DNA from: Candidatus Poribacteria bacterium
GTDB taxonomy: Bacteria > Poribacteria > WGA-4E > WGA-3G
Length of the DNA: 64,000 nucleotides
Direction: 5' to 3'
Assembly: GCA_965261435.1 (NCBI GenBank)
Contig: CBDHDL010000021.1
Coordinates: 4,379,950 to 4,443,949 of the forward strand
This document shows positions 3,629 through 48,058 of this stretch, piece by piece; the first letter of the stretch is position 1; the number at the start of each line of letters is the position of its first letter. The notes under the pieces were generated by a model. It was not told where the DNA came from. It saw only the letters and a list, made by a program, of their open reading frames with translations, and did no database searches. The position numbers were made by a program, and so were the translations under genes.

Positions 3629-3700
3629 CAGGGCGGGTAGGATTCGAACCTACGCATGCAGGTTCCAAAGACCTGTGCCTTACCGCTTGGCCACCGCCCT
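3629..3700 (-). tRNA. tRNA-Gln (anticodon UUG)
   Basis: The reverse complement folds as a cloverleaf: acceptor AGGGCGG/CCGCCCT, anticodon stem CAGGT/ACCTG with loop CTTTGGA (anticodon TTG), T-arm GTAGG-TTCGAAT-CCTAC. CCA is not encoded. Confidence 0.8.
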
Positions 3701-6650: not shown

Positions 6651-6701
6651 AAGTTATTCTCCTTGTTTCTGTCGCTTCATTTTAAAAAATATGATGCATT
6701 T

Positions 6702-7856
6702 TTACCAATTCGTATAGGAACCGTCATCTCTTTGATAGCCATGGGGCGGTCCATATTCCTGAGTAGTTACATTCTTTAGTGCTTCTTCGTTGAACTCAAT
6801 GCCAAGACCTGGTAATTCTGGAGGCAGTAAATAACCAGATTCAAATGGCACTTGCACAGGGAAAACATCTGTCAGAGATGACATCGGAGCACGTGGTAGT
6901 TCCTGCACGCCAACAAGTGACGAGGCTAAACAGAGATGTAGACACGCCGCAGTAGATACCGGACCAAGTGGATTGTGGGGTGCTAAATGGATATAATGTG
7001 TTTCACACCACCCAGCGATTTTTCGCGCTTCTGTCAGTCCACCTGCAATGCATAAATCTACACGACAGTAATCTAATAGATCCTCTTCAATGACTTCTCT
7101 GAAAGTCCATTTGCTATCAAACTGTTCTCCTACTGCAATCGGGACAGAGGTCTGTTGTCGCAGTCTTCTCAAACTCGCGGGATTCTCACTTCGAAGTGGA
7201 TCTTCTATAAAAAATGGATTGTAAGGTTCAACCATCTTACAGAAATCAAGACTATCCGCTGGATCAAGTCGAGTATGAACATCAACCAGGATGTTGATGT
7301 CATCCCCTAATGCTTCACGAACTGCCTTTACTTGTTCTAATCCATAAGCTACAGCGCGTCTCGGTTCAAAAGTACCTGAGCCACTACCGTCTGCTAATCC
7401 CCATCGTGCAAACTTCCAACCTGCTTCGTATGTTTGTCGACAACTTTCAACAAGTTGCTCAATTGATCCACCACCATTATGTGGATAACAGACTACCTTA
7501 TCCCTCGTCTGTCCACCTAACAATTCATATACAGGAACATTGAGTGCTTTTCCTTTGATGTCCCACAAAGCGATGTCAACAGCACTGACTGCTGCTGATT
7601 GAACTACACCGCCAGGGAAAAAACCGCCACGAAACATTACTTGCCATAGATGTTCAATTTGGAAGGGATTTGCCCCAATGAGAATTGGTTCAAACGAACG
7701 CACAACTTCAGCCAATGCAACTGCCCGTCGTCTAATTCCACCCTCACCGACACCGAAAATACCAGCATCAGTTTCAACTTTAACAAAGAAATGTCCAGAT
7801 GAGGAAACAAAAGACTTTACATTTGTGATTTTCATATAAGATTCCGATTTTACCAT
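6702..7856 (-). CDS. enolase-superfamily enzyme (mandelate racemase / muconate lactonizing enzyme family, sugar-acid dehydratase-like)
   Basis: The 'MKITNVKSFV...VKVETDAGIFGVGEGG' N-terminal capping domain and the barrel-domain acidic residues fit the MR/MLE family. Confidence 0.7.
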   Translation of the reverse strand: MVKSESYMKITNVKSFVSSSGHFFVKVETDAGIFGVGEGGIRRRAVALAEVVRSFEPILIGANPFQIEHLWQVMFRGGFFPGGVVQSAAVSAVDIALWDIKGKALNVPVYELLGGQTRDKVVCYPHNGGGSIEQLVESCRQTYEAGWKFARWGLADGSGSGTFEPRRAVAYGLEQVKAVREALGDDINILVDVHTRLDPADSLDFCKMVEPYNPFFIEDPLRSENPASLRRLRQQTSVPIAVGEQFDSKWTFREVIEEDLLDYCRVDLCIAGGLTEARKIAGWCETHYIHLAPHNPLGPVSTAACLHLCLASSLVGVQELPRAPMSSLTDVFPVQVPFESGYLLPPELPGLGIEFNEEALKNVTTQEYGPPHGYQRDDGSYTNW

Positions 7857-7863
7857 TCAACAG

Positions 7864-8682
7864 TTAAACTGCATCTAAAGTGGGTGTGTTGTCCTGACAA
7901 TAAACAGGTCGGAAGAGTGTCTGCCTCTTGAAGTGCATTTCTTCAACATGCATCGGATGAGGCTTCCATTTGTGCCATTTGTTACCAACGGTGTTATAGC
8001 AGTTGAAAATTGCGACACGATCATAAGTATCATCAGTCCATTTTGCACCTGTATGCGTAATCGCTTCAGTGAAAACTAACATTGAACCTGCTGGACAACT
8101 GTAATCTTCCCACAAGGGTGAAGTCCTGTCTGCTGTTGATTGTGGTGCAGGAAAAGCTCCTTTATGACTCCCGGTTAAGAACATTGTTCCTCCACCACCC
8201 TCTTTAACAGGATTGAGTTCCCAAACAACTCGAGTTAGACCACTATGTGCTCTGTCATGATGTAGGTGATAGGTATGTGAATTACCCGGAAAATTTAGCA
8301 TGCCACGACCACCGTGTGGACGGAAGTTATCGTGACCGTTTCCACGTATGGTAAGAAATGTACCCTCAAACCTAAAACCATAACAATTCTCATTAGAATA
8401 ACCCGATGTTAGGAATTCGTTCATGAAACCTAACACAACAGGATGATCTGTCAAGGATTCTAACGGACCACCGATTGAAGACCGATGATGTTCAGGAATT
8501 GTATCTGGTTCCTTCTGCAATTGATAACAGAACTCACGCATTTCTTTGGTTTCAGTTTCACTTAAGACACCTGGGAATAGAAGCCATCCGCGGGTATCAA
8601 ATAAGAAACGTTGCTCTTCCGAAAGTGGGATTGGTGGAAGATTATCAGCATTCGTCGTAGGATTTGGCATAGAATACTCCAA
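7864..8682 (-). CDS. Fe(II)/2-oxoglutarate dioxygenase, phytanoyl-CoA dioxygenase (PhyH)-like
   Basis: The 'HLHHD' H-x-D motif and overall size are similar to PhyH-family proteins, but the match is weaker than for the other two paralogs in this window. Confidence 0.45.
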   Translation of the reverse strand: MEYSMPNPTTNADNLPPIPLSEEQRFLFDTRGWLLFPGVLSETETKEMREFCYQLQKEPDTIPEHHRSSIGGPLESLTDHPVVLGFMNEFLTSGYSNENCYGFRFEGTFLTIRGNGHDNFRPHGGRGMLNFPGNSHTYHLHHDRAHSGLTRVVWELNPVKEGGGGTMFLTGSHKGAFPAPQSTADRTSPLWEDYSCPAGSMLVFTEAITHTGAKWTDDTYDRVAIFNCYNTVGNKWHKWKPHPMHVEEMHFKRQTLFRPVYCQDNTPTLDAV

Positions 8683-8734
8683 CTAATTTCATTCATTAGA
8701 TTTGCAAATTGAATTGTGTTATACATTCTAATTT

Positions 8735-9898
8735 CTATTTCTGTCCATATAATCGTTCAGTTTCTTGATTCAACCAAGTTCCATAATCTCGTGGCATTTC
8801 TTTTATTGGACCGAGTCCATGATCTTCGCGCCACTTAAGCAAAGGATGCTCACGATTTTTCTGCGGTAAATCTATCCGTTTTCCGTGAATCGCAGATTCA
8901 AAAATACCCATTAGTATCTCCATAACATGCCGTCCTTCTTCGCCACTGCACTCATGCTCGCGATCTTCATCAAGAGCATTCACATATTCATCAACAATAC
9001 AATAGTCGTCAGCATCTGCCCCTCTTTCTTTGTCAAAATGATCAGGAAAGATAGGAGTTAGTTTCTCCCAACGGTCATGAGTACCGTCTGGAATAAAATG
9101 TGGTGTAGGCAACCACCAAGATCCTCTGAGTTCAGACCAAAACAATCTACCTTCGCTTCCGTATAGTTCAAGAACATAAGCATCGCTACTAACTTTTGGA
9201 AAGCGCTGTTGTATTAATGTACCAGTAACATTCCCATCAAATTGCAGTGTTGAAGTAGTATATTCACCTACTACAGTCCCCATACCAGCGGGTGATGGAA
9301 TTACATCCTCAGGTATAAGTTGTCTACCACCAGCAGTTGCTTGTGTTACAATACTTCTACAGTGTCCACCGAAACGAAGCATATTGTTGACGACATGTGT
9401 TCCGATGTTCATAAGTCCGTATCCAGCATAATATCCTTTCCCACAAGCATACATATAACGCAATTCACCGATTTTTCCTTCATCAAGGAGCTTAGAAATT
9501 GCTTGCAAGGTTGGACTCACTCTACGTTGATGATGTACAACGATACGAGCATTTTTCTCTTTTGCTTTTGCCAATATAGCATCCGCTTGAACCAAATCAA
9601 CACACAAGGGTTTTTCAACTTCTATGTTCACACCATACTCAAGGACCCGCATACATAGAGGATAGTGCATCTCTGTCGCCGTGGGTATAGCAACAATATC
9701 TGGTGAAGTCTTCTGTATCATTTCATCTAAATCACTGAAATGCGTCGAGACATTAACTATCTTACCAAGTGCTTCTAACCTGTCCTTAACAAGGTCACAG
9801 AGTGCTACGATTTCAGTGCGCGGGTGTGCATAGTATGCTTTCGCTGCTGAAGTTCCTCTACTTCGGCATCCCAATATTGCAACGCGATAAGTCTTCAT
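8735..9898 (-). CDS. Gfo/Idh/MocA family NAD(P)-dependent oxidoreductase
   Basis: 'MKTYRVAILGCRSRGTSAAKAY...EIVALCD' is the Rossmann N-terminus. 'EKPL' motif present. Confidence 0.8.
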   Translation of the reverse strand: MKTYRVAILGCRSRGTSAAKAYYAHPRTEIVALCDLVKDRLEALGKIVNVSTHFSDLDEMIQKTSPDIVAIPTATEMHYPLCMRVLEYGVNIEVEKPLCVDLVQADAILAKAKEKNARIVVHHQRRVSPTLQAISKLLDEGKIGELRYMYACGKGYYAGYGLMNIGTHVVNNMLRFGGHCRSIVTQATAGGRQLIPEDVIPSPAGMGTVVGEYTTSTLQFDGNVTGTLIQQRFPKVSSDAYVLELYGSEGRLFWSELRGSWWLPTPHFIPDGTHDRWEKLTPIFPDHFDKERGADADDYCIVDEYVNALDEDREHECSGEEGRHVMEILMGIFESAIHGKRIDLPQKNREHPLLKWREDHGLGPIKEMPRDYGTWLNQETERLYGQK

Positions 9899-10088
9899 AG
9901 TTGTAAAACCAAATTCCTTTATTTATAAGCGTCAAATCACAATCAAAATTATATTTAATATTAACCTATTGTGCTGATGCTGTCAAGAATTTTGTTTTAT
10001 AAGCAAAAAATAATCTGATTATGCAACATTACACACCCACCGCCATTTTCCCTTTGACTCCCACCGCAAAACCTGCTAACATACCCCC

Positions 10089-10277
10089 ATGCCACAACTC
10101 AAGCTAAAACCGACTCACAAACCAGTCCGAGACTACTACGCCACTTTACAACAATACGAACAGCACGGTGTGACACACGAAGGCGCAGTCAGCGCGCCTT
10201 TTGAAACGTTTCGATTTTACCAGACGCAACAATATACAGTAGAAAAAATGTTACTATTTTTTATTGATATAGTATAA
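10089..10277 (+). pseudogene. N-terminal remnant (~41 aa) of a large Type IIG/ISP-like helicase/methylase restriction-modification enzyme
   Basis: 'KPTHKPVRDYYATLQQYEQHGVTHEGAVSAPFETF' resembles the conserved N-terminus of large N6-methylase RM fusion proteins. The frame then degenerates ('RFYQTQQYTVEKM...*') around 10212. A TTGACT-17-TAACAT promoter-like sequence lies just upstream. Confidence 0.4.
10253..10273 (+). repeat. 21-bp direct repeat ACTAyTTTTTATTGATATAGT (left copy)
   Basis: 20 of 21 nt identical to 14425-14445. The two copies bracket the RM pair, the IIG C-fragment and the GmrSD pseudogene. Confidence 0.75.
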
Positions 10278-10334
10278 TATGATAATGGATAATTGACTGA
10301 AGTCATTATCAAAAATGTCAAGTAGAGGGGAATT

Positions 10335-11252
10335 ATGTCAATACATAACAGCGAAAATAAAAAAACAGATCTTAATAGAGAAAGAAAAGTTAAGAACCGA
10401 AAAGAAAAAGAAGCCACTCGCGGAAAGCATTATTACGCAAATGCCAACGACTTTAGTAAGAAAAATAATCTGCTACCTGCCGAGTTTACAAATGAAATTA
10501 TCTGTGGCGATTCACAGGTCGTCCTCAAGCAACTACCAGACAATTGTATTGATCTTATTTTTACTTCACCACCCTACAATTTTGGATTGGATTACGAACA
10601 AACCGAAGATGCCTTTGCATGGGATTCCTACTTCAAGTTATTGTTCAGTATCTTTGACGAATGTATCAGAGTCCTAAAATATGGGGGACGGATAATCGTT
10701 AACGTTCAACCCTTATATTCAGACTATATCCCAACACATCATCTAATTTCACAGTACTTTATGCGTAAAAAACTGATATGGAAAGGTGAAATTTTGTGGG
10801 AAAAAAATCATTACAATTGTAAATATACTGCTTGGGGAAGTTGGAAAAGCCCGTCAAGTCCCTATTTAAAATATTCATGGGAATATTTGGAAATCTTTTG
10901 CAAAGGGTCTTTGAAAAAATCGGGTGATCCGAAAAATGCAGATATTGACGCTGATTCTTTCAAAGAGTGGGTATATGGAAAATGGACAATAGCACCTGAG
11001 CATAAGATGAAACAGTTTGGACATCCTGCTATGTTCCCTGAGGAATTAGCAGACCGAGTGCTGAAACTTTTCAGTTTCAAAGGGGATGTCATTTTAGATC
11101 CGTTTGCAGGTGTTGGAACAACCTGTCTTTCGGCACTAATGAATCAGCGTTGTTATTTGGGTATAGATATTTCACCAGAATACTGCGAAACTGCAGAAGA
11201 TAGGCTACGAATCTTGATTAGCGCACCTACATCTACAGAGTCTTGTTTGTAG
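10335..11252 (+). CDS. beta-class DNA N4-cytosine / N6-adenine methyltransferase (Type II modification methylase)
   Basis: Motif IV 'IFTSPPY' comes before motif I 'ILDPFAGVGTT' (the PF01555-type order). Lys-rich N-terminus. Confidence 0.8.
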   Translation: MSIHNSENKKTDLNRERKVKNRKEKEATRGKHYYANANDFSKKNNLLPAEFTNEIICGDSQVVLKQLPDNCIDLIFTSPPYNFGLDYEQTEDAFAWDSYFKLLFSIFDECIRVLKYGGRIIVNVQPLYSDYIPTHHLISQYFMRKKLIWKGEILWEKNHYNCKYTAWGSWKSPSSPYLKYSWEYLEIFCKGSLKKSGDPKNADIDADSFKEWVYGKWTIAPEHKMKQFGHPAMFPEELADRVLKLFSFKGDVILDPFAGVGTTCLSALMNQRCYLGIDISPEYCETAEDRLRILISAPTSTESCL

Positions 11253-11265
11253 ATAATACATCCAG

Positions 11266-12006
11266 ATGAACATCCAAATGAAACTTTTCGAAACAAACAA
11301 CAATTCAGAATATGGGTCAGTAGACAATTTGGATTATGAGTCAGTCGTAGATATCTATACAGATAGTATACATTCAATGTATACTATGACTGCAGGACAA
11401 ATTCGAGGCGCAAAAGGTGATCTTGTAGAAAATTTAGTTGATGTTATTGTCAAATTAGCATGGCATGAAATTGGCGGTGAGAAGGACCGGTTAGATATAA
11501 AAAAACACACAGGAAGAATTTCTATTGATGAAGACTATGTAGAAGCCCTAACGCCTGAATATGTTAGAGATCACATTGAACAGAATAAGGGTAAATATAT
11601 TTATAAAGTTGAACTTGATAGAGCGGTTGAGATAGACAATAAGATAATTTTAGGTATAGAATGTAAGTCCTATATAGAAAATGCAATGTTCAAAAGGACT
11701 TTAAAGGATTTTGAATTGATCGTGAAACTGCTTTATCCAGATTTGCTTTTTTGTGTGTTTCAATTTGAAAATAGTCTGGGAGGGGACTACGGAAAAGTAA
11801 GTGAACAAAGACAATTAGGAAGCGAATCAACACATACGTTACTTTCTCACACACCATCGGTAGATTTAGAAATTATAACACTTCTTGATGGTGATAGAAA
11901 ATCAGATAGGCCAATACATAAACGGGAATATTTTAAGGAACTTCCAGTGGAAAACATAGAAATTTGTGTAAATAAATTTAGGAATATACTTAAACCTTTT
12001 GTTTAG
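11266..12006 (+). CDS. putative Type II restriction endonuclease (PD-(D/E)xK-like), partner of the upstream methyltransferase
   Basis: It starts 14 bp after the MTase stop. 'KVELDRAVEIDNKIILGIECKSY' fits a D...(E)xK nuclease core. No other family signal. Confidence 0.4.
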   Translation: MNIQMKLFETNNNSEYGSVDNLDYESVVDIYTDSIHSMYTMTAGQIRGAKGDLVENLVDVIVKLAWHEIGGEKDRLDIKKHTGRISIDEDYVEALTPEYVRDHIEQNKGKYIYKVELDRAVEIDNKIILGIECKSYIENAMFKRTLKDFELIVKLLYPDLLFCVFQFENSLGGDYGKVSEQRQLGSESTHTLLSHTPSVDLEIITLLDGDRKSDRPIHKREYFKELPVENIEICVNKFRNILKPFV

Positions 12007-12011
12007 CTGAA

Positions 12012-12644
12012 AAAACTTTCCTTCCCTTCTACACCTACAACGAAAACGGTACAAACCCAAAAGAGAATATCACCGATTGGGCATTGGCAGAATTCCGAAA
12101 ACACTACGGTGATGATACCATCAGCAAGTGGGACATCTTCCACTATACCTACGGCATCCTGCACCATCCGGAATATCGGGAAAAGTATCAAGCGAACCTT
12201 AAGCGTGATCTGCCGCATATCCCGTTTGCACCAGATTTTTGGGGTTTTGCTAACGCAGGCGCACAATTAGCAGACATACACGTTAACTACGAGTCGCAAC
12301 CGAAATATGATGGTCTCAAATATATTGAAACACCAGACATGCCGATAGATTGGCGCGTTGAAAAGATGAAACTCTCTAAAGACAAAACGCAGTTGGTATA
12401 CAATGATTTCCTGACGATAGACGGTATTTCTGCGGAGGCGTTTGACTATCGACTCGGCACGCGTTCTGCGTTAGAGTGGATTGTAGATCAGTATCGCGTC
12501 AAAACGGATAAACGGAGCGGAATTGTGAACGATCCGAATCGTGCGGATCAGCCACGGTATATTGTGGATTTGATAGGGCGGGTTATCACCGTCAGTTTGC
12601 AGACGGTTGATATTGTGGGCGCATTACCAGATTTAGGTGTCTGA
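12012..12644 (+). pseudogene. C-terminal ~210 aa remnant of the Type IIG/ISP-like RM enzyme (MTase-C / target-recognition region)
   Basis: The frame opens at 11994 inside the end of the preceding gene. 'ENITDWALAEFRKHYGDDTISKWDIFHYTYGILHHPEYREKYQANLKRDLPHIPF' matches the conserved post-methylase region of PglX/MmeI/Type ISP enzymes. The middle of the ancestral gene is missing. Confidence 0.6.
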
Positions 12645-12660
12645 ATCGCGGATTTTCACA
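12383..12660 (+). repeat. direct repeat copy 1 (3' end of the Type IIG-like gene plus 13 bp past the stop)
   Basis: Read directly from the sequence: about 91% identical to 14458-14737, and near-identical over the last ~110 bp. Confidence 0.85.
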
Positions 12661-12743
12661 GATTTCGTAGGTTTTTGTTGGGTTTCGTAAACTCAACCTA
12701 TTGGTGTAAACTTAAGGAAATTAAATCCATTTTTGGATGTCTT

Positions 12744-12773
12744 CAGTCCGGTAGGGACGATATGTTTATAGAA
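12744..12773 (+). repeat. short repeat element GTAGGGACGATATGTTTATAGAAA (copy 1 of 3)
   Basis: 'cagtccggtagggacgatatgtttatagaaa'. The same ~24-nt core recurs at 50843 and 50930. It contains the small hairpin GTCC(C/G)GTAGGGAC. Confidence 0.7.
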
Positions 12774-12824
12774 AGGTTCCTTTGGTAATTTCAATTTATG
12801 TCATAAATGGTTTATTGCGAAATT

Positions 12825-14350
12825 TCATATCTTATCACACTTCGCCATGTTACATGGTCTGCATAGCAGGGTTAAATTTTCCCATTCAGTTAATCCTCCT
12901 TGAGAATAAGGTTTAATGTGATCAGACTCAAGCTGCCGAAAACCTGCCACTCCTGAGAAAACTTGATCGCAGTCTGGGCATACATATCCACCACGGTTAT
13001 GGTTTAAATTTCTGCGAAAATATGATTCCTTCCATTCTATTGGAAAATATCGACTCTGGGGATCACATGTCGGAAGATTAGGGGGTTGTGAACTCAAGAA
13101 AGATTCCTTATTTAACAATCTTTGATAAAAGAAGTTTTGCCATGTCGCATTGTGTTTTTTGTCCTCGTTTACCTCCCCAACGACCCCTCTGTTCTGGATA
13201 ACCACCTTCTGTGCTAAGCCACTTAGTTCCAGCCTGTCGAGGTGCTCGGATAAACCCACCTATTGCATCCCATGCATCATGACTCAGATTCTTAGGGTCA
13301 AGTTCCAATTCAACAGCGGAACCTATCAACAAGGCAGTTTGTTTATATTTATCAACGCTCACTCCTGACAATCCGCTTCCAAGTATTACTTCAATCCACT
13401 TAGCAAAATTTTCAAAATCCTTTTCAAGTCCATTTCCGTATGTAGGGAAAATATTTTCTTTATTTTTTGTGTCGGTAAATTGTAGCTGCGCACAAAAAGT
13501 ATCAAGTGCTTGTTCTGTAGAACCATTAAACGTCATTGCAAGATGTTTCATCGTATCGGGAGTTGAAATTAGGTTGTTCAATTTTTCTCTATGAGAGAAT
13601 GCAAGATACCACAGAAACATTGCTGACGGAGTTTGTCCTTTTGCCTGTGCTTTTCCATCCCACCAGTCAATCCAATATTGTTCGGCGGCAGGAAATTGTC
13701 CCCAAGGATTTTCAACACCCTTTTCACGAGCAGCTTGCTATCATTCGTTGAGCAGATGACGTATCTGCATAAATACCCGCGAGTCGCACAAAATAAACAG
13801 ACTTAGACTCGCTGTAATATGATAGCCTTATATCTTGGGCGGTTAGAGGTGTGCCCCCTTCGTTGATACGTCTGAATATCTCAAGTTTTGTCCCAAGATC
13901 CAGACGCGGTGGTAAGTAAATAATTGTAAGTGGATAATCATTAAAAACTGTTTTAAATTTCTCGGGAAGCTCCGAGAACTTTTTCCCACTATAGTGGACA
14001 CTTTGTGGCGAAAGATAGTTGATGTCATCATCTGCGTCTAAACTAAATTCATCGTTTTCAAATTTCCGAATTGTATTCAAACGTTGCTGTCCATCAATGA
14101 CTTCAATTTTACGACTCTCTTGATCTTCTAAAAAAAAGAGGGCAGGCGTTGTCAGATTATTCAATAACGATTCAATAAATAGAGATTCTTTCCGCTGATC
14201 CCACTGTTCTGCATCACGCTGGTAATCGGGAATGATAATTCGTTTATTCTTTACACGACTATAATTGTTTCTACATTCTCGCTTTGCGTTCGAGTCGCGT
14301 CGCTAACGATTGGGGCAATGTTTTCAACGTTTAAACTCTCTGTGCTCATA
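12825..14350 (-). pseudogene. GmrSD-like Type IV restriction endonuclease (DUF262 + HNH/DUF1524), broken into at least 3 frames
   Basis: The ATG at 14350 gives MSTESLNVENIAP...VV* and then shifts frame to 'KRIIIPDYQRDAEQWDQRKESLFIESLLNN...DGQQRLNTIRKFE' (DUF262 motifs). A middle piece spans 13108-13620. The C-terminal piece 12825-13259 carries the HNH motif 'DHIKPYSQGGLTEWENLTLLCRPCN'. A TTGACA-18-TATTAT promoter lies at 14381-14410 on the minus strand. Confidence 0.65.
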
Positions 14351-14380
14351 ATCCTCTCCATTATATAAATTTCTCTTTAT

Positions 14381-14410
14381 ATAATACTATCTCTGGTTAT
14401 CGTGTGTCAA
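14381..14410 (-). promoter_or_regulatory. sigma70-like promoter (TTGACA-18 nt-TATTAT) for the GmrSD-like gene
   Basis: Minus-strand reading: ttgacacacgataaccagagatagtattat. RBS ggagagg precedes the ATG at 14350. Confidence 0.5.
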
Positions 14411-14424
14411 TCAAAAAGTTGGAA

Positions 14425-14445
14425 CTACTTTTTATTGATATAGTG
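14425..14445 (+). repeat. 21-bp direct repeat ACTAyTTTTTATTGATATAGT (right copy)
   Basis: See left copy. This copy lies 12 bp before the duplicated IIG 3' end. Confidence 0.75.
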
Positions 14446-14457
14446 CAAATTATCTAA

Positions 14458-14737
14458 AGACAAAACGCAGTTGGTATACAACGATTTTCTGACAATAGCA
14501 GGTATTCCAGCGGAGGTGTTTACCTATCGGCTTGGCACGCGTTCTGCGTTAGAGTGGATTGTAGATCAGTATCGCGTCAAAATGGATAAACGCAGCGGTA
14601 TTGTGAACGATCCGAACCGCGCAGATCAGCCGCGGTATATTGTGGATTTGATAGGGCGGGTTATCACCGTCAGTTTGCAGACGGTTGATATTGTGGGCGC
14701 ATTACCAGATTTAGATGTCTGAATCTCGGATTAGGCG
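14458..14737 (+). repeat. direct repeat copy 2: a second, diverged copy of the last ~88 codons of the Type IIG-like gene, plus stop and 13 bp
   Basis: ORF 14471-14722 'MVYNDFLTIAGIPAEVFTYRLGTRSALEWIVDQYRVKMDKRSGIVNDPNRADQPRYIVDLIGRVITVSLQTVDIVGALPDLDV' matches the end of 12084-12644 with several substitutions. Confidence 0.85.
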
Positions 14738-15027
14738 GGTTTCACCAAATCAAAGGTATGAATTTCATTAGGCATTCCCTGGATTTATTGGATTCCCCAA
14801 ACTCAACCTAACCTACACACGAAACTTTGCACAAAGAATCAGGTGTTATGTTCATTTGTGATAAAAAGTGCCAAAAAACCGAAAACTAAATAACCCTGGG
14901 GTGTGTAAAGTTTTTGTCACAATATGATTCTGGTACATAAAGTTCTCGTCAATAGAAATGTGAAATTAGCAACCTTTTCTGTCCTTAGTTTACAGAGCAC
15001 CTAATGGTTATGAAAATACCTTGAAAT

Positions 15028-15110
15028 TCCCAAAACCCCCTTCCGCGTCTTCCGTGTTCTCCACGTAATCCGCCATTCAGACAAAAACGGTGACAATTAC
15101 AATACACACC
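15028..15110 (+). repeat. ~83-bp direct repeat, copy 1 (CAAAAACCCCCTTCCGCGTCTTCCGTGTTCTCC...TTCAGACAAA...ACACACCC)
   Basis: About 85% identical to 15224-15310. A third partial core (TAATCC-N5-TTCAGACAAA) at 15168-15189 gives ~100-bp periodicity. Confidence 0.75.
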
Positions 15111-15223
15111 CCTCTGGAGCTGCCGATTAAACCAAAATCCTCTTATCCTGTCTTTCCTGATAATCCTGGTTCAGACAAAGCACATCATCACACATAAATC
15201 CAAGTCATAATCAGAAACCTAAA

Positions 15224-15310
15224 ATACACAAAAACCCCCTTCCGCGTCTTCCGTGTTCTCCGCGATAATCCGCGATTCAGACAAATAGAGTGACAAAATA
15301 TTTACACACC
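15224..15310 (+). repeat. ~85-bp direct repeat, copy 2
   Basis: See copy 1. Confidence 0.75.
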
Positions 15311-15324
15311 CAAACCTTTACACA

Positions 15325-15358
15325 CTCTTGTGTTATAATGATTCTTGTGTTATAATGG
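15325..15358 (+). promoter_or_regulatory. tandemly duplicated extended -10 promoter elements (cTTGTGTTATAATg x2) upstream of the lipoprotein gene
   Basis: 'cttgtgttataatgattcttgtgttataatggg' contains two TGnTATAAT boxes 17 bp apart, ~60 bp upstream of the ATG at 15416. Confidence 0.5.
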
Positions 15359-17542: not shown

Positions 17543-17790
17543 AAAAGACTCCTTAAACAGTGAAATAATGACTTAGTAATATCAGAAGTAGTCGTAACAG
17601 GAATTTATCAGAGAATAAGACTGATGTCAAGGTGTGTTATAGCAAAGAATGTGAAAATTATTAAGCTTTAAGAACTTCGGCTTGCTGGTTTAGATAAGAA
17701 AGAAGCAAACATACCAAGATTGAACTATCAACAGGGTTATTTAGTTTTCGGTTTTTTTGGACTTTTTATCACACCTGTAAATATCAGTTG

Positions 17791-31905: not shown

Positions 31906-33165
31906 ATGGATTCAGATGAGATTATCTCAAATGTGAATACCGCTTCACATCCATCAGAACTGAAAATTACCGACATGCGAATTGTCAGAACGCAGGTGGG
32001 TGGACCTATCCTTAGATTGGACACAAATCAGGATATACATGGTCTTGGAGAAGTGCGTGATGGGGGAAGTCCAACCTACGCTCTGATGCTGAAAAGTCGC
32101 ATCATCGGTGAAAATCCGTGCAATGTTGACAAAATATTTCGTAAGATAAAACAGTTCGGACACCACGCGAGACAAGGGGGAGGTGTCTGTGGAATCGAAA
32201 TGGCGCTAATGGATTTAGCAGGAAAAGCCTATGGTGTTCCATGTTACCAACTTGCAGGTGGAAAATTCAGAGACAAAATAAGATGTTATAGTGATACTCC
32301 TTCTTTAAAAGATGCAGAACAAATGGGGAAAAAACTCCAGGAACGCATTGACAAAGGATTCACATTTTTGAAAATGGATGTAGGTATTGGACTACTTAGC
32401 GGTATCCCGGGGACACTATCAGCACCTGAAGGAAACCTAAGTTCACATAATCTTAAGCATCCTTTTACAGGTATCAGACTGACAGAAAAAGGCATCAACA
32501 TTCTCTGTGAATATGTAGAAACTGTCAGAGAAATAATTGGATATGAAGTACCGCTTGCTGTGGATCATTTCGGTCATATCGGAATTGAAGATTGTATCCG
32601 ACTTGCAAGGTCATTGGAAAAATACAATCTTGCTTGGTTAGAGGATATGGTGCCGTGGCAATATACAGATCAATATGTACGTCTTTCAAACTCCTGTGCC
32701 ACCCCAATCTGTACAGGAGAGGATATCTACTGCAAAGAGGATTTTTTACCACTGTTTGAAAATAGAGCTATCGCAATTTGTCATCCTGATATAGCAACCT
32801 CGGGGGGCATACTGGAAACAAAGAAGATTGGTGATCTTGCGGAAGAACACGGTATTGCAATGGCACTACACATGGCAGGAACACCTGTATGTGCAATGGC
32901 AAGTGTTCATTGTGCTGCAGCAACATCTAATTTTATGGTCTTAGAAAATCATTCTGTAGACAATCCATGGTGGGATGAAATGGTGACCGGATTACCAAAT
33001 CCTATTATCCAAGATGGATACATTGAAGTACCTGAAACACCCGGATTAGGAATTGAACTCAACGAAGAAATAATCAAAGCACATCTTCATTCGGATGAAG
33101 AAGGTTATTTCTTGCCTACAACAGAATGGGATAACGAACGTTCACATGATAGGTTGTGGAGTTAG
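31906..33165 (+). CDS. enolase-superfamily enzyme (MR/MLE family)
   Basis: Capping domain 'LKITDMRIVRTQVGGPILRLDTNQDIHGLGE'. The barrel has 'FLKMDVG', 'LAVDHFG', 'WLEDMV' and 'CTGED'. Its stop (TAG 33163-33165) overlaps the stop of the convergent cassette gene. Confidence 0.75.
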   Translation: MDSDEIISNVNTASHPSELKITDMRIVRTQVGGPILRLDTNQDIHGLGEVRDGGSPTYALMLKSRIIGENPCNVDKIFRKIKQFGHHARQGGGVCGIEMALMDLAGKAYGVPCYQLAGGKFRDKIRCYSDTPSLKDAEQMGKKLQERIDKGFTFLKMDVGIGLLSGIPGTLSAPEGNLSSHNLKHPFTGIRLTEKGINILCEYVETVREIIGYEVPLAVDHFGHIGIEDCIRLARSLEKYNLAWLEDMVPWQYTDQYVRLSNSCATPICTGEDIYCKEDFLPLFENRAIAICHPDIATSGGILETKKIGDLAEEHGIAMALHMAGTPVCAMASVHCAAATSNFMVLENHSVDNPWWDEMVTGLPNPIIQDGYIEVPETPGLGIELNEEIIKAHLHSDEEGYFLPTTEWDNERSHDRLWS

Positions 33166-33734
33166 GTTAGGCCCCTCGCTTTTAGCAGGACATTTGCTAA
33201 ATTTCTTTCATCATTACATTTGCTTTTACTAATGACATATTCACTACCATTAAATCTAATTTTTTCATGCATTAGTTTCCTATATTGTGATTTGTGAGTA
33301 CCACTACCGTGGAATAGAACAGGCACACAAGTTATAATGATCTTTGCTGGAACAACACTTTTCGCGTAATCAGCGCCGCCACGTAGTTGATCTGCCACAT
33401 CTTTTGCGCTTTTAAAAGTACCACCTTTGTTTTCGATTAAAACTATAACAAGTTGATCGCTGTTCGGACAGATGTAAAAGAGTATTTTGTCACAATGTTT
33501 CCCAGTACTTCCACGTGCATTAAAAGCAAGATCAACATCCACTACTACACGCTCAATTGGTAGTCCACTCATGTCAACACTACATTTATTGCTACTGCAG
33601 GAAGATGTTAGATTTTCTTCACCTACCCTCCTTCGTATTTCATTGAGAGTTTCACTCATTTTTATTTTCTGCGTCCTCATTAAGGAATTGCCGTTCAAGA
33701 TCAACGAAAGTATTATATAAGTGATCAGCAACAT
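33162..33734 (-). CDS. small protein with a PD-(D/E)xK-like nuclease motif; putative effector of cassette 1
   Basis: 'RVVVDVDLAF...CDKILFYICPNSDQLVIVLIENKGG' is a D...ExK core. Its start overlaps the ATPase 3' end by ~80 bp. Its paralog at 35325-35873 has the same architecture. Confidence 0.45.
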   Translation of the reverse strand: MLLITYIILSLILNGNSLMRTQKIKMSETLNEIRRRVGEENLTSSCSSNKCSVDMSGLPIERVVVDVDLAFNARGSTGKHCDKILFYICPNSDQLVIVLIENKGGTFKSAKDVADQLRGGADYAKSVVPAKIIITCVPVLFHGSGTHKSQYRKLMHEKIRFNGSEYVISKSKCNDERNLANVLLKARGLT

Positions 33735-35121
33735 CTTCGTAATCTTTCGGCTCTATACCTTCAATGCGATCAAAAGGTATCTCTTCTACAGGTTTATTAG
33801 ATTGAAACCACCATACACCTACTTCTTCTTTTTGCAATTTGTATGGTATTGCACCCGATTCACCATTGTGTTCTTTCAGTTCACCTTCACGAATTAGATT
33901 GGCGATTTGCTGAAGAAGCCAATCGCTATGCGTTGTTATTATCACACGAACTCCAGCTCGGACCAATCGCGCAAGTGCAACAGCAACCTGTGTTTGTGCC
34001 CTTGGATGCAGATGCGCTTCAGGTTCTTCAATGATGAGTGTATCACCAGGATTAACTAAACTTCGAAGGAATATTACTAAGGGGGTAAGTTCTGATACCA
34101 TTGAGGATGTCCTATTCATCTGTATTGCTTGTTTTGAGTGTTTTGGACAGAAAATGAACTGTGGATATCCGACACCAGCATGTCTGTTTACCATTATTTC
34201 CCCTTGCAAGACCTCGTTTTCGAGTATTTTTGATATTTCAGTTATTTCACTTGAAGACCGTTCACGATCATTGTAATTGATGATATGTTTGAGAAAATCC
34301 GCGATCACGCCAGTAAGCATGGAAATTTCTTGTGAGTGTGCCAATCCAGAACGAGTCGCACGATCCACAAGGCCACTTGTTATTACGCCATGTGTTTCCA
34401 TAATTCCACCTTGAATAGAAGGTAGAAAAAATGTATGGTGTCTTGGCAATTCCGACATTGAAATGCCTAATCGTGAAACTAATTCCAATATATCTGCTTC
34501 ATCTTTTGACTTGTCATTATTGCAGTAAGTAAAGACCATATCTTCGTTAATTTTCTTATTCGTAATGATACCAGACGCAGAACTATAACAATTTATAGAC
34601 CACAGAAATTGGCTCTCATCACTAATTCTTACCTCAAAATTCATCTCATCTTCAGAATTATTCGTGAATCTTCTCAATTCTTCTATGAATTCAAGGTCAA
34701 AACACCTTTTGAGTTCGGTTTCAATCACTTTCGAATTTTCCATATCATCTTTCAACAGTTTCTTAACTATCTGAGGTAAATCTGAAAACTTGAATGTTCT
34801 TCCTATAGTATAGAGTTTGTGAAATGCATCATGAATTTCTTTTTTCACACTGTTTGGATTTGGTACGGATTGATCCTGACCGATGTATTTGGATTCAAAA
34901 CTATGTGGAGTAAAGGGTATCCAAGGAATTCTTGAAAATCCCTCAAATGTCTGTTGTAATGCATAGATTAGAGTAGCAAGATATGTCTTACCAGTATTGC
35001 TTTCACCGACAAACACCGTCAGTGGACGCAAATCTATCTCTGCCTTCTCAATTGGTCCAAAGTTCTCTACTGCTATGTTGATGTTTAGGGGTTTTTGCGC
35101 TATCTCTTCGTGCATTGGCAA
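33652..35121 (-). CDS. ABC-type (AAA_15/AAA_21-like, OLD/PtuA/AriA-like) ATPase of cassette 1
   Basis: Walker A 'VFVGESNTGKTYL'; Q-loop region; 'SSMVSELTPL' signature-like; Walker B/D-loop 'TLIIEEPEAHLHPRAQ'; H-loop 'IITTHSDW'. 489 aa. Confidence 0.75.
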   Translation of the reverse strand: MPMHEEIAQKPLNINIAVENFGPIEKAEIDLRPLTVFVGESNTGKTYLATLIYALQQTFEGFSRIPWIPFTPHSFESKYIGQDQSVPNPNSVKKEIHDAFHKLYTIGRTFKFSDLPQIVKKLLKDDMENSKVIETELKRCFDLEFIEELRRFTNNSEDEMNFEVRISDESQFLWSINCYSSASGIITNKKINEDMVFTYCNNDKSKDEADILELVSRLGISMSELPRHHTFFLPSIQGGIMETHGVITSGLVDRATRSGLAHSQEISMLTGVIADFLKHIINYNDRERSSSEITEISKILENEVLQGEIMVNRHAGVGYPQFIFCPKHSKQAIQMNRTSSMVSELTPLVIFLRSLVNPGDTLIIEEPEAHLHPRAQTQVAVALARLVRAGVRVIITTHSDWLLQQIANLIREGELKEHNGESGAIPYKLQKEEVGVWWFQSNKPVEEIPFDRIEGIEPKDYEDVADHLYNTFVDLERQFLNEDAENKNE

Positions 35122-35147
35122 TTCTCCTTTTCAACGTGTATGTAGAC

Positions 35148-35181
35148 TCTATTATACACGAAAAAAAGGGTAACTGCAAGG
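35148..35181 (-). promoter_or_regulatory. near-consensus sigma70 promoter (TTGCAG-17-TATAAT) driving cassette 1
   Basis: Minus-strand reading: cttgcagttaccctttttttcgtgtataatagag, ~30 bp upstream of the ATPase ATG. Conserved at 37308-37341. Confidence 0.6.
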
Positions 35182-35217
35182 TATGAGAATAGGGAATCAC
35201 CAACATGCGTGTTGGCC

Positions 35218-35328
35218 AAACTCAACGAAGAAGTAATCAAAGCACATCTTCACTCGGATGAAGATGGTTATTTCTTGCCTACAACAGATTGGGATTATGA
35301 ACGTTCACATGATAGGTTGTGGAGTTAA
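35218..35328 (+). repeat. ~108-bp diverged copy (~95% identity) of the 3' end of the enolase-superfamily gene (33058-33165)
   Basis: 'ctcaacgaagaagtaatcaaagcacatcttcactcggatgaagatggttatttcttgcctacaacagattgggattatgaacgttcacatgataggttgtggagttaa' versus 33058-33165. The stop overlap with the cassette-2 small gene is the same as at the 33162-33165 junction. Confidence 0.85.
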
Positions 35329-35873
35329 CTTAATAGTTTCTTCTGTAGTATCTTAGATAATTTTCCCCCGCAGCGGGCAGTAATAATTTCAGACGAGATA
35401 CCTTGAAAACTTATTTGTGATTTGATTTTTCTTAGATGTCTTATTTCGGCTCTACTTAAATGATTGTGATACAATATGGGAATGAAAATTGTTTTGATTC
35501 CTGATGAAACAAAACTTGCTGCATAAGCCGCTCCACTTTTTAATTGCATGACAGCCTTATCTGCCTCGGCATTCTTTCCACCTTTGAGTTCTATTGCTAC
35601 AACAACTAGTCTTTCGGATGAATCAAAATAAAAAATAATGCATTCACATTGACTCTTGCTTTGTTGTCCATGTGGAAATACTTTATCTAAATCTACTACA
35701 ACCCGTTCATTTTCTGATACTCCTGTCAAACCTACACTACAATTCCCTCTTTTGAATGAATTTTTTAAAAACAAGCTCTCTTTACCGATCTGTCCTCTTA
35801 TATTCTCTAATACCTCACTCTTGTTCACTCGTGTTAGCTCCTGCATTTTCTCTGAGTGAGGAACGAAGGTCAA
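35325..35873 (-). CDS. small protein with a PD-(D/E)xK-like nuclease motif; putative effector of cassette 2
   Basis: 'RVVVDLDKVF...CECIIFYFDSSERLVVVAIELKGGKN'. Likely true start at the internal Met (MQELTRVNK...). Overlaps the ATPase 3' end. Confidence 0.45.
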   Translation of the reverse strand: MTFVPHSEKMQELTRVNKSEVLENIRGQIGKESLFLKNSFKRGNCSVGLTGVSENERVVVDLDKVFPHGQQSKSQCECIIFYFDSSERLVVVAIELKGGKNAEADKAVMQLKSGAAYAASFVSSGIKTIFIPILYHNHLSRAEIRHLRKIKSQISFQGISSEIITARCGGKLSKILQKKLLS

Positions 35874-37278
35874 CAGAATGATTGTAGAGATCCTCTGCTA
35901 CATTTCCATAGTCAGGTGGTTCTATTCCATTAACAAGATCAAATTTAATCTCCTCTACAGGTTTGTCAGCATGAAACCACCATGCACCAACTTCTTCAGC
36001 AGTCAAATAAGTCGATGAATCTTGTTGTTTCTGCTCCATTCTCATCAATTCACCCTCGCGAACTAAATTACTAATTTGTTCAAGAAACCAATCACTATGT
36101 GTTGTAATTATAACACGAACTCCAGCTCGGACCAATCTCGAAAGTGCAATGGCAACCTGGGTTTGGGCTCTCGGATGCAGATGTGCTTCAGGTTCTTCAA
36201 TGATCAGTGTATCTCCGCATTTTACATATCTTCGCAGATACAAGACTAAAGGAGTAAGTTCTGATACCATTGAAGAGCATTGACTCATTCGAAGTGCAAT
36301 TTCTGATTGTTTTGGATAGTAGAGATACTCAGGATAACTAACTCCAGCAGGCTTGTTTATTTCAATTCTTCCTTGCAAGACTTCGGTTTCAAGGTATTTA
36401 GCAATGAAATCTATCTTATCTGATAAACCTCTAACTTCGTTATAATTGACGATCTGATTCAGAAAATCTACAATCATTCCCGAAAAAGTTGGTATTTCAG
36501 GGTAAAGTTCAAGTCCGACTTTAGTTGTCCGATTGTAGAGAGCCATAGTAATAATACCATGACTTTGCATGATACCACTTCGCGCAGCAGGTAGGTAGTG
36601 TGAACTTTTTTCTTCTCTTCTGTCTATTCGAAATATTCTTCTAAATTCGTCAAAATCAAGCGGCTCATGTCTACTTTTTCTGTTATCAGTATTAATAACC
36701 ATATCTCCGTTAATCAAACCGTATGCTGTGCTACCTGTCCCATTGTTCTGCATATCAAATGACCATAGAGTTTGGTTAACGTCACTAATATTTAGTGAGA
36801 AACTTAAAACATTGTTTGAGTCTCTTGCTGACCGAATTATCTCTGAAATTGTTTCTAAATCGTAATAGAGTCTAAGTTTCTCTTCAATAGAATCAGTTCT
36901 ATTAAGATCGGATTCCAACATAGTACGCACGCGCTCAGGTAAATCTGAGAATTTGAAGGGACGTCCATGAGTGTTTAATTTCTCAAGAATCTCAAAAATT
37001 TCTCTATCAAGTTTTTCCTGGTTTGATACTTTCCGAGCAACTGGACGGTAAGTAAAAGCTATATTTGATTGTAAACGGTGTGACGATGGAAATTGTGTGA
37101 AACCATCAAAACTTTTATGCAATGAATGAATTAGAGTAGCAAGATATGTCTTACCAGTATTGCTTTCACCGACAAACACCGTCAGTGGACGCAGATCTAT
37201 ATCTGCCTTCTCAATCGGTCCGAAGTTTTCAACTGATATGTTGATTTTAAGGGGTTTTTGATCTTTCTCTTCGTGCAC
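35815..37278 (-). CDS. ABC-type (AAA_15/AAA_21-like) ATPase of cassette 2; paralog of 33652-35121
   Basis: Same motifs ('VFVGESNTGKTYL', 'TLIIEEPEAHLHPRAQ', 'IITTHSDW'). N- and C-terminal thirds are ~90% identical at nucleotide level to cassette 1; the middle is diverged. Confidence 0.75.
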   Translation of the reverse strand: MHEEKDQKPLKINISVENFGPIEKADIDLRPLTVFVGESNTGKTYLATLIHSLHKSFDGFTQFPSSHRLQSNIAFTYRPVARKVSNQEKLDREIFEILEKLNTHGRPFKFSDLPERVRTMLESDLNRTDSIEEKLRLYYDLETISEIIRSARDSNNVLSFSLNISDVNQTLWSFDMQNNGTGSTAYGLINGDMVINTDNRKSRHEPLDFDEFRRIFRIDRREEKSSHYLPAARSGIMQSHGIITMALYNRTTKVGLELYPEIPTFSGMIVDFLNQIVNYNEVRGLSDKIDFIAKYLETEVLQGRIEINKPAGVSYPEYLYYPKQSEIALRMSQCSSMVSELTPLVLYLRRYVKCGDTLIIEEPEAHLHPRAQTQVAIALSRLVRAGVRVIITTHSDWFLEQISNLVREGELMRMEQKQQDSSTYLTAEEVGAWWFHADKPVEEIKFDLVNGIEPPDYGNVAEDLYNHSVDLRSSLRENAGANTSEQE

Positions 37279-37307
37279 TGCTAATCCTCCTTTACAAGGT
37301 GGAAGTA

Positions 37308-37341
37308 GATTCTATTATACACGAAAAATAGGGTAACTGCA
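37308..37341 (-). promoter_or_regulatory. near-consensus sigma70 promoter (TTGCAG-17-TATAAT) driving cassette 2
   Basis: 'ccttgcagttaccctatttttcgtgtataatagaatc' on the minus strand; paralogous to 35148-35181. Confidence 0.6.
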
Positions 37342-37359
37342 AGGTATGAGAATAGGAAA

Positions 37360-38328
37360 TTATATCAACGAAACAATCCTTTGATATAGATGTGGAACAG
37401 TGACAGAAAAGTCACCGGAAATATGATAACTTTCTCCACCATCCTTTACTGTTCGTATAAGGATAGTTTTCTTTGGTCGGTGATAGTAATGTGCATCAGT
37501 AGGATTCCCTTCATCCTGAAAATCTGGAAAATCTATGAGATCAAAATTCGCTGTTGTAAATTTTCGTATCTCTTCACCATCCTGTGCTGCAATGTTCCGT
37601 GCCATAGATAAACTCTTCAAATAAACTTCAGGTCCCATTACTGCAGAACCCAAATTAAGAAAGACACCACCTTCTAACTTTGAAATAGTCTCCGCGAAAA
37701 TCAGGAAGTCTCTGCCTGATGTCCAACCGATTGCAGCAAAATCTGCTGCAGGATGCTGATCAGTAATGTCAAATCCAATACCCTTATGGACAGTAATAGG
37801 TACTCCTAAACGATAGGCTGCAGCAAATATGCTCACTTCAAGATGAGGAAATTGAATTTTACTTTCTTGATTCTGTATGAGTCGTCCAATAGCATGACCA
37901 TAACCAATTTTGTCTTGGTGACCTCTAATTATTGCCTCATTCAAATACCTTCCTGTCTCTTCCCAGTTACCGAATTTCCCATCACGTATATAAACTTCAA
38001 CATCTTCAAGCGTTGCCCCTATATGTGCCATCTCAAAATCGTGTATCGCACATGCACCATTTGTTGCAATGTGGGTAATCATACCACGTTTCATTAGATC
38101 AATTATAAAGCGTGAATTACCACGACGCATCACATGTGCACCCATCATCCAAACAACCTGTTTTCTGTTCTGATAGGCTTTGACAATACATTCAGCGACG
38201 ATGTTGAGTCGTTCATTTTCATAACGTGGAATGTCACCATCTAACGCATAGATGTGTTCCACAGTCATCTTGTGTTTACGTTGCGATAGCGGTAGAATTG
38301 TAAGGTGAGAACGATCCAAGTAAGACAT
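37360..38328 (-). CDS. hypothetical protein, possibly deoxyhypusine-synthase-like (DHS-like NAD-binding fold)
   Basis: 'VWMMGAHVMRRGNSRFIIDLMKRGMITHIATNGACAIHDFE' is loosely reminiscent of DHS-family motifs. Weak assignment. Confidence 0.3.
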   Translation of the reverse strand: MSYLDRSHLTILPLSQRKHKMTVEHIYALDGDIPRYENERLNIVAECIVKAYQNRKQVVWMMGAHVMRRGNSRFIIDLMKRGMITHIATNGACAIHDFEMAHIGATLEDVEVYIRDGKFGNWEETGRYLNEAIIRGHQDKIGYGHAIGRLIQNQESKIQFPHLEVSIFAAAYRLGVPITVHKGIGFDITDQHPAADFAAIGWTSGRDFLIFAETISKLEGGVFLNLGSAVMGPEVYLKSLSMARNIAAQDGEEIRKFTTANFDLIDFPDFQDEGNPTDAHYYHRPKKTILIRTVKDGGESYHISGDFSVTVPHLYQRIVSLI

Positions 38329-47963: not shown

Positions 47964-48058
47964 TATTTAGTCTGGACTATCCATTAGACATTATACTGTT
48001 TTCGCTTTTGGCATCAGATTTGCTCAGACATGAGCACATACATTAGAGGAGATACAAA

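Follow-up and report, generated by a model that had tools for sequence, protein, structure and literature searches.

Does a copy of a gene's 3′ end beside a defence cassette mark the place where the cassette was integrated, or can such a copy have another origin? The question arises from a locus in a 64-kb stretch of DNA from Candidatus Poribacteria, a phylum of uncultured sponge symbionts. In this stretch (hereafter the window, whose coordinates are used throughout), a minus-strand DUF262–HNH cassette lies between two diverged direct repeats of the 3′ end of a gene from an ISP-like methyltransferase family, next to a type II restriction–modification (RM) gene pair. A first-pass annotation had taken this arrangement as the footprint of an integrative cassette. 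Comparison with other loci (numbered with the prefix L) leads us to lean towards a different reading, namely that the repeat is a scar left by recombination at a hotspot for defence genes. Recombination within the gene family, both homologous and illegitimate, would have imported a block of ~4.2 kb and displaced the resident 3′ end.

The limits of the repeat were set with MAFFT, a repeat finder and blastn, all in agreement. Copy A (12369-12654) and copy B (14447-14732) align without gaps over 286 nt, of which 263 are identical (92.0%); at weak similarity, the repeat may extend to 12363/14441. The repeat proposed by the first-pass annotation (12383-12660 and 14458-14737, ~91%) is real, with limits that were slightly off. 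Its edge had been placed 13 bp past the stop codon; the TGA stops lie at 12642-12644 in copy A and 14720-14722 in copy B, and the repeat ends 10 nt beyond them. The divergence is uneven, as had been noticed: in the left part (12369-12555) 166 of 187 positions are identical (88.8%), in the right part (12556-12657) 97 of 102 are, and the last ~100 nt reach 95-99%. Third codon positions account for 14 of the 22 coding differences (binomial P = 0.0035), and in 12 of the 18 codons affected the encoded amino acid is unchanged. This bias indicates that the copies diverged as parts of working genes, and argues against the in-place duplication of a dead fragment.

The sister strain L086 shows the locus without the repeat. 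This ENA scaffold was reached through the homolog of a neighbouring oxidoreductase (99% identical), and its flanks show 96-98% DNA identity to window positions 1-21400. The locus is bordered by a GFO/IDH/MocA oxidoreductase gene on one side and by a 203-aa gene and a mandelate racemase/enolase-superfamily (MR_MLE) gene on the other. Here L086 carries one intact ISP-like gene of 1023 aa, and no type II RM genes, DUF262–HNH cassette or repeat are present at its equivalent locus. Window positions 9924-10212 are 96.2% identical to L086. The window follows L086 up to 10209/10210, where it switches, at a GAAAC(C)G microhomology, to the sequence type of a composite found in L009. L086-type sequence resumes at copy B, with window 14447-15337 collinear with L086 6896-6053, and 115 of the 128 nt directly after the copy B stop match L086. 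The right junction has no extended homology. The two strains differ by a replacement, ~4.2 kb for ~2.7 kb, that spans 10210-14446, and there is no precise empty site. In L089, a more distant relative, the equivalent slot holds two unrelated LTD-domain genes, which identifies the slot as a hotspot. The features of the locus are as follows.

10089-10209, plus strand: resident N-terminal remnant of the ISP-family gene, 41 codons, 79% protein identity to the N-terminus of the 1026-aa gene of L002
10210-10334, plus strand: presumed start of the imported block, an L009-like junction and promoter module 1, homologous to L009 ~8225-8330
10335-11252, plus strand: type II N4/N6 DNA methyltransferase, intact open reading frame (ORF) (PF01555, 8e-41; PADLOC MTase_II, 4e-65)
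11266-12006, plus strand: type II restriction endonuclease, intact ORF (PADLOC REase_II PDLC03499, 2e-58)
12006-12644, plus strand: C-terminal 212 codons of an ISP-family gene, presumably imported with the block and containing copy A (Pfam Type_ISP_C, 3e-55, profile positions 176-342)
12655-12818, no strand: spacer downstream of copy A, with a hairpin-like GTTGGGTTTCGTAAACTCAAC and a 35-nt dispersed repeat at 12740-12774
12819-14417, minus strand: DUF262–HNH two-gene cassette, limits taken from comparison with L082, L083, L084 and L085
12825-13259, minus strand: HNH ORF (PF01844)
13108-14350, minus strand: DUF262 pseudogene (PF03235), frameshifted by two 1-nt changes, a deletion at ~14262 and an insertion at 13736
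14410-14381, minus strand: cassette promoter, TTGACA-18-TATTAT, strong and sigma-70-like, 11/12 positions, the best consensus match in the region
14413-14444, plus strand: module 2, 32 nt, a copy of the type II RM promoter region reduced to its UP and -35 half, abutting copy B
14447-14732, plus strand: copy B, the stranded resident 3′ end, 92 codons of open frame and 10 nt

Copy B is the stranded resident 3′ end, because it is contiguous with the L086-type flank and shares a unique derived block with L086. The derived states at 12439, 12444, 12445 and 12455 (copy A numbering), together with bases after the stop, are common to copy B and L086 only; copy A and six other family sequences compared lack them, and copy A is of the family-consensus type. 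In the left 187 nt, copy A is 88.8% identical to copy B, 89.3% to L086 and 89.3% to L004, and copy B is 90.4% identical to L086. Copy A is here no closer to the resident allele than to other genomes, which supports the notion that one of the copies is not resident. The segment 12006-12644 as a whole is 91% identical to L086, with flanks at 96-98%. The end of copy A is different: its last 89 coding nt are 98.9% identical to the resident sequence and at most 90% to any other locus. These resident-like last ~100 nt are probably a short gene-conversion patch. Past the repeat end, the flanks of copy A and copy B are unrelated, so the abrupt divergence described by the first-pass annotation exists. 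However, the spacer after copy A is of the family type and the flank of copy B is of the L086 type; the edge is therefore the start of the two paralogs' own flanks and not an insertion junction.

These identities also bear on a Campbell-type single crossover, or insertion with long target duplication, in which a circle of ISP 3′ end (from -278), spacer, cassette and promoter stub would have entered a resident composite. The order of gene, 3′ end, cassette, 3′ end and downstream DNA (G-H-C-H-D) is the exact product of such a crossover, and the near-identical last ~100 nt would be its favoured zone. RM and type IV genes with direct repeats of 46-423 bp and no mobility gene have been documented (PMC2853133). 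Nevertheless, the model predicts a donor-type left part in copy B and a resident one in copy A, whereas the left part of copy B carries the L086-type block. A hybrid donor would be required as well, given the foreign spacer of copy A and its resident-like last 100 nt. Repeats made by target duplication start out identical, but the left 187 nt differ here by 11%, mostly at synonymous positions. No circular form and no second instance of the same junction were found. We consider this route improbable.

The gene that the repeat belongs to is itself a remnant. The first-pass annotation had treated it as an intact RM gene, but of the ISP-family gene at this locus only the first 41 codons (10089-10209) and the last 212 (12006-12644) survive, with the type II methyltransferase (10335-11252) and restriction enzyme (11266-12006) in between; the promoter region of the N-terminal remnant begins at ~9924. 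Full-length members of the family (L002, 1026 aa; L047, 1084 aa) match only the ISP_coupler, N6_Mtase, Eco57I and Type_ISP_C domains. A domain search found no nuclease or helicase domain in these two proteins, and we accordingly regard the family as ISP-like methyltransferase/target recognition domain (TRD) proteins rather than true Type ISP enzymes. A Type ISP enzyme such as LlaGI or LlaBIII joins nuclease, helicase-like ATPase, coupler, methyltransferase and TRD in one polypeptide, of which the first two are missing here.

The ISP-like family is strongly expanded in Poribacteria, and it is multi-copy and mosaic. A tblastn search with the 212-aa fragment, counted in one genome per species, gave at least 574 relatives across Poribacteria species genomes, and several genomes have three or four family loci. 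Tandem arrays are formed by four genes in L047 (4114-17584) and by two each in L050 and L081. Such tandem paralogs are mosaics in which identity ranges along the gene from 57 to 100%; at their 3′ ends it is 84-98%, which makes a repeat of a gene's 3′ end at 92% ordinary for this family. Across 48 full-length genes the last ~660 nt are conserved (mean identity 76-81%), the TRD region that precedes this block is hypervariable (59-66%), and the first 120 nt are again conserved (78%). At many loci, short tandem or inverted repeats begin at the stop codon of the ISP-family gene. A 35-nt intergenic dispersed repeat, TCTTCAGTCCGGTAGGGACGATATGTTTATAGAAA, occurs at 12740-12774 and 50837-50871 and at no fewer than 10 other Poribacteria loci, often directly 3′ of ISP-family genes.

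The type II genes form part of a composite that recurs elsewhere. L009, from another species and in another context, has the same order of N-terminal remnant, promoter, methyltransferase, restriction enzyme and last 640 nt of the ISP_C end at 75-87% identity, with an identical junction between the restriction-enzyme stop and position -640. The methyltransferase shares 92% protein identity with L009 8395-9279 and has a low GC content (0.33-0.40); the restriction endonuclease shares 67% with L009 9315-9989. Module 1 (10242-10273) lies ahead of the methyltransferase, with a TTGATA-18-GATAAT promoter at 10264-10293 (10/12 in the promoter scan). Its 21-mer core, ACTAYTTTTTATTGATATAGT, occurs in the window only at 10253 and, within module 2, at 14424, where 0.02 occurrences are expected by chance; the promoter module that contains this core is also present in L009 and L007. 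Module 2 suggests that copy B was once preceded by a second unit of promoter, methyltransferase, restriction enzyme and ISP_C end, from which the two enzyme genes have since been deleted.

Such a unit also figures in another explanation. The locus may be a decayed tandem array, in which two family units had the cassette between them and the second was reduced by deletion to the promoter stub and the last 278 nt. The units may have been ISP-like genes or two complete composites. This account overlaps with the import of a block, the sole difference lying in how the two units came to stand side by side. It draws on the known arrays of two to four genes in L047, L050 and L081, whose 3′ ends (84-98%) span the same range as copy A versus copy B, and on the truncated type II RM promoter directly ahead of copy B. 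The synonymous-biased divergence fits two once-functional paralogs, and L054 contains a comparable order of ISP gene, convergent Trypsin–TPR gene and partial ISP 3′ fragment. On the other hand, the sister strain has a single gene within flanks of 96-98% identity, which would call for a recent collapse in its lineage, and its 3′ end is no simple derivative of either copy A or copy B. This account would also require several independent deletions whose ends coincide with functional boundaries. A decayed array is in our view unlikely, though not negligible.

The cassette, too, has relatives elsewhere. Its DNA is 92.6% identical over ~1600 nt to L082 7496-9094, L084 9934-11520, L083 and L085, and the homology is limited by a point just upstream of the -35 element and one ~5 nt past the HNH stop. 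The first-pass annotation was correct in giving the cassette its own promoter on the minus strand (TTGACA-18-TATTAT, 14410-14381). It had also called the cassette GmrSD-like. In the GmrSD type IV enzyme, DUF262 (GmrSD_N) is fused to a DUF1524 nuclease, whereas here the DUF262 gene matches PF03235 only, the nuclease is a separate HNH ORF (PF01844) and the best PADLOC match is NsnA. A single GmrSD-like protein of 508 aa was considered and rejected, as homologs are ~413 aa and the HNH part is a separate, overlapping ORF. Intact DUF262 homologs have 410-417 aa; the gene in the window is a pseudogene because of its two 1-nt frameshifts, neither of which sits in a long homopolymer.

In L082 and L083, the cassette is convergent to the end of an ISP-family gene, 51 nt apart, and the ~165-nt spacer after copy A aligns, with indels, to this 51-nt spacer. 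Spacer positions 12672-12773 are in addition 76% identical to sequence 3′ of an ISP-family gene in L011. Copy A, spacer and cassette are a pre-existing neighbourhood. L084 carries the cassette at its ffh locus, with 92-93% DNA identity as in L082 and convergent to a full-length ISP-like gene, and the ffh locus of L170/L171 has the same gene order with a more distant cassette relative (85% at the protein level). The arrangement of ffh, DUF262–HNH cassette, variable gene and convergent full-length ISP-like gene recurs in L084 9934-16439 and L170/L171 6001-11949. This neighbourhood, shared by several Poribacteria species, may be the home locus of the cassette, and one may ask whether DUF262–HNH acts together with the nuclease-less ISP-like methyltransferase. 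A DUF262 homolog (83% identical) is also found in a different defence island, L172 1-13236, with T5orf172, a DDE_3 transposase, a 590-aa N4/N6 methyltransferase, a ResIII helicase, an AAA_15/DUF3696 pair and a C5 methylase.

The junctions seen in other assemblies make a mis-joined or expanded repeat extremely unlikely. The junction of cassette, module 2 and copy B (14412-14447) occurs in this window alone, as an assembly error would have it. However, three of the four junction types are present in other assemblies: that between the restriction enzyme and ISP_C in L009, that of copy A, spacer and cassette in L082 and L083 (a Logan contig), and that of copy B and its flank in L086. The copies differ at 23 positions and have unique flanks, and there is a record of a 186-aa product with 99% identity to the copy A ORF.

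Taken together, these comparisons point to the following course of events. A block of ~4.2 kb (10210 to ~14446) would have come from a paralogous or allelic locus of the family. It would already have held the type II methyltransferase and restriction enzyme inside its own gutted ISP-like gene, along with the last 640 nt of that gene, the downstream spacer and the convergent DUF262–HNH cassette. The block would have replaced ~2.7 kb of the interior of the resident gene, and the final 278 nt of that gene, attached as before to the resident flank, would have been shifted downstream as copy B; copy A would be the 3′ end that travelled with the block. The left junction would be the GAAAC(C)G at 10209/10210, and the right one the fusion of the truncated type II promoter fragment at -278. 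Both look illegitimate or mediated by microhomology. The event would thus resemble homology-facilitated illegitimate recombination, or displacement, with family homology as the guide and at least one illegitimate end. The patch in the last ~100 nt of copy A would have followed later. The order and number of the events, the recombination pathway and the donor are what we infer from these data.

Several observations weigh against this course. For the direction of change we depend on a single sister strain, L086, in which the intact gene could have arisen by a later replacement. The 3′ end of that gene matches copy B at only 90.4% in the left 187 nt, and in this part the apparent orthology of the two depends on a short derived block and the flank. 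We found no donor locus near-identical to the block. With microhomology of just 5-6 nt at the left junction, a long homologous anchor is not demonstrated, and it would be uncommon for a single event to have two illegitimate junctions. Module 2 beside copy B is not predicted by a one-step import and hints at an extra step. To our knowledge, neither natural competence nor another route of DNA uptake has been described for Poribacteria.

The first-pass annotation had instead proposed a small integrative element that carries a copy of its target's 3′ end and is mobilised by a site-specific recombinase in trans, and it had assigned two ATPase cassettes in the window to the same family. The second locus on which it relied was called an enolase locus; the gene there belongs to the MR_MLE family, and the copy of its 3′ end is confirmed. 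The features at this locus are as follows.

33056-33166, plus strand: 3′ end of the MR_MLE gene (H1), last ~110 nt
33162-35200, minus strand: ATPase cassette 1, with a 190-aa ORF, a 489-aa AAA_15 ATPase (PD-T4-4_A / PDC-M47-like) and a promoter
35201-35332, plus strand: orphan copy of the MR_MLE 3′ end (H′), clear from 35219, ~94% identical to H1
35325-37363, minus strand: ATPase cassette 2, with a 182-aa ORF and a 487-aa ATPase

The two ATPases share 51% protein identity, and their 5′ ends and promoters are 87-95% identical. No third copy of the gene end follows cassette 2. The order is G-H-C1-H′-C2-D, as opposed to G-H-C-H-D at the RM locus, and the lack of a terminal H means that the two loci differ in geometry. 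The description of a gene 3′ end, a minus-strand cassette with its own promoter and a diverged copy of the gene end holds for the RM locus, but not the statement that both loci share it. In L090, the orthologous locus is an empty site, where 25 nt separate the MR_MLE stop from the gene that follows; in L091, it holds a single ATPase cassette of 1950 nt and no 3′-end copy. The MR_MLE locus fits the import of a second cassette allele with a piece of its left flank, by the same generic process rather than by a mechanism dedicated to integration.

An integrative element would account for two loci in one window with a gene-end copy beside a convergent defence cassette that has its own promoter. It would also account for the sharp, identical ends of the DUF262–HNH cassette in three different flanks, and, from L091 compared with L090, for the ATPase cassette as a clean indel that occupies the interval from the MR_MLE stop to the gene that follows. 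The edges of the repeat are nonetheless unlike those of the cassette. The inner repeat edges (12654 and 14447) differ from the cassette edges (12819 and 14417): a family-type spacer of ~165 nt separates copy A from the cassette, and a truncated promoter of 30 nt separates the cassette from copy B. The cassette also exists elsewhere without the repeat: no flanking repeat was found in L082 or L084, where it was searched for directly on the promoter side (L170/L171 were not searched), and none accompanies the ATPase cassette in L091. L086, in turn, differs by block replacement and not by precise insertion. In alignments read by eye, we saw no core motif common to the junctions of the RM and MR_MLE loci. 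The target is moreover a multi-copy mosaic gene family, which, with the different MR_MLE geometry, speaks against a family of cassettes mobilised in trans.

A mobilising enzyme was likewise not apparent. No integrase or transposase family was matched in Pfam by the scanned window ORFs of at least 100 aa, and there was no recombinase match among the scanned ORFs of the 64 kb. Viral contigs yielded no close relatives of the ISP C-terminal fragment, nor of the cassette DUF262 protein, for which P0121 (96% identity to the window protein as reconstructed) served as query. Look-ups of window proteins (restriction enzyme, MR_MLE, PhyH and P0002, or near-identical relatives) returned nothing on record. 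A tRNA gene as target was rejected; the only one, for Gln, lies at 3629-3700, far from both loci.

We also scanned 85 Poribacteria loci and the window for the gene-end-copy signature that the first-pass annotation had suggested looking for, defined as a direct repeat whose first copy is the 3′ end of a long ORF, at a spacing of 0.7-9 kb. Apart from the two loci of the window, the matches that were inspected are ordinary tandem paralogs or shared C-terminal sorting domains, and none brackets a cassette. The only other case in the ISP family is L054. Here (7529-14631), a full-length ISP gene is followed by a convergent Trypsin_2–TPR gene (477 aa), a 124-nt 3′-end fragment and an AAA_35/PDDEXK gene; the fragment corresponds to positions -185 to -62 of the gene and is 77% identical to it. 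On all these grounds we find the integrative element with a common mechanism at gene 3′ ends very unlikely.

A more general possibility is a recombinase-independent or trans-encoded route that moves defence cassettes, from promoter to stop, to positions just past certain genes and on occasion duplicates the adjacent gene end. It would fit the sharp DUF262–HNH ends in three flanks, the clean ATPase indel and the two gene-end copies within 64 kb. Such a route is distinctly doubtful; if real, it would be an undescribed way of mobilising minimal defence cassettes.

Further repeats and variable genes were observed in the window. Two 55-nt inverted repeats (14844-14898 and 17732-17786, 87% identical) bracket the 203-aa gene and an MR_MLE gene. 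A transposon delimited by them was rejected, as the genes in between are conserved in the sister strain and the repeats are dispersed copies of an element also present in L007, L009, L017 and L026. The intergenic region of the first inverted repeat also has a 66-nt direct repeat (15032-15096 / 15231-15296, 91%). A near-perfect palindrome at 47862-47983 has 51-nt arms (84% complementary) and a 20-nt spacer, and contains GGGTTTCG of short repeats. Positions 49329-55183 hold four tandem MacB/FtsX-type permease paralogs (67-81% DNA identity), of which that at 51413-52408 seems N-terminally shortened, followed by an HlyD-family gene. Between an aminotransferase gene and an MR_MLE gene, a BglII-like type II RM system varies in presence among the loci compared. 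It is absent in the window (6664-6701, a gap of ~36 nt), reduced in L086 to the endonuclease (13198-13989) with a 37-aa remnant ORF upstream, and present with both methyltransferase and endonuclease in L088 (3545-5143) and L089 (13966-15503).

The locus provides a worked example of defence-island remodelling in an uncultured sponge-symbiont phylum. Mosaic methyltransferase/TRD genes would act as recombination substrates through which defence modules overwrite each other, leaving stranded gene ends as datable scars. A note of caution also follows, in that a gene-end copy beside a cassette is not always the signature of an attachment (att) site.

Integrases that insert into gene 3′ ends can bring an element-borne replacement end, as with e14 or phage 21 in icd, and cis-mobilisable elements can use such enzymes in trans. 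The likeness to our locus is the diverged, synonymous-rich gene-end copy that flanks inserted DNA. Such elements, in contrast, have a recombinase of their own or of a relative and identical att cores that coincide with their ends, and they show precise empty sites; no feature of this kind was found here. Insertion with long target duplication is known for RM and type IV genes, with repeats of 46-423 bp (Nobusato et al. 2000; Furuta, Abe & Kobayashi 2010, PMC2853133). Our locus shares with it the defence genes between long (>30 bp) direct repeats, the lack of a transposase or integrase and the single copy in a related genome. There, however, both repeats are target-derived and near-identical to the target. 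In our case the two copies disagree at 11% of the left 187 nt, copy B alone has ties to the resident allele, and the related genome shows a block replacement instead of a simple insertion. Domain and segment exchange among RM paralogs within a genome is treated by Furuta & Kobayashi 2012 (PMC3467074). It concerns, as here, a multi-copy RM-related family with conserved blocks around a variable recognition region and mosaics that imply frequent recombination; in our locus, whole foreign genes (the type II pair) and not recognition domains alone stand in place of the variable region.

The closest parallel is the displacement model for orphaned 3′ ends in Rhs, CdiA-CT and type VI secretion system effector–immunity arrays (Kirchberger et al. 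2017, PMC5361080), where homology-facilitated illegitimate recombination is attributed, in the form cited there, to de Vries & Wackernagel 2002. In that model the anchor is the 5′ part of the gene, and the orphans are variable toxin ends with their immunity genes. Here the orphan is the conserved 3′ block, the cargo consists of restriction and DUF262–HNH genes, and both junctions have only microhomology, so that a homologous anchor is not demonstrated. On our reading, the two settings have in common that a module arriving from a homologous locus takes the place of part of a resident gene, that the old 3′ part persists downstream on the resident flank, that no recombinase takes part, and that copies within one genome group with alleles from elsewhere and not with each other. 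The locus is best regarded as a further case of an already described type of recombination scar, lying in a defence hotspot within a multi-copy gene family.

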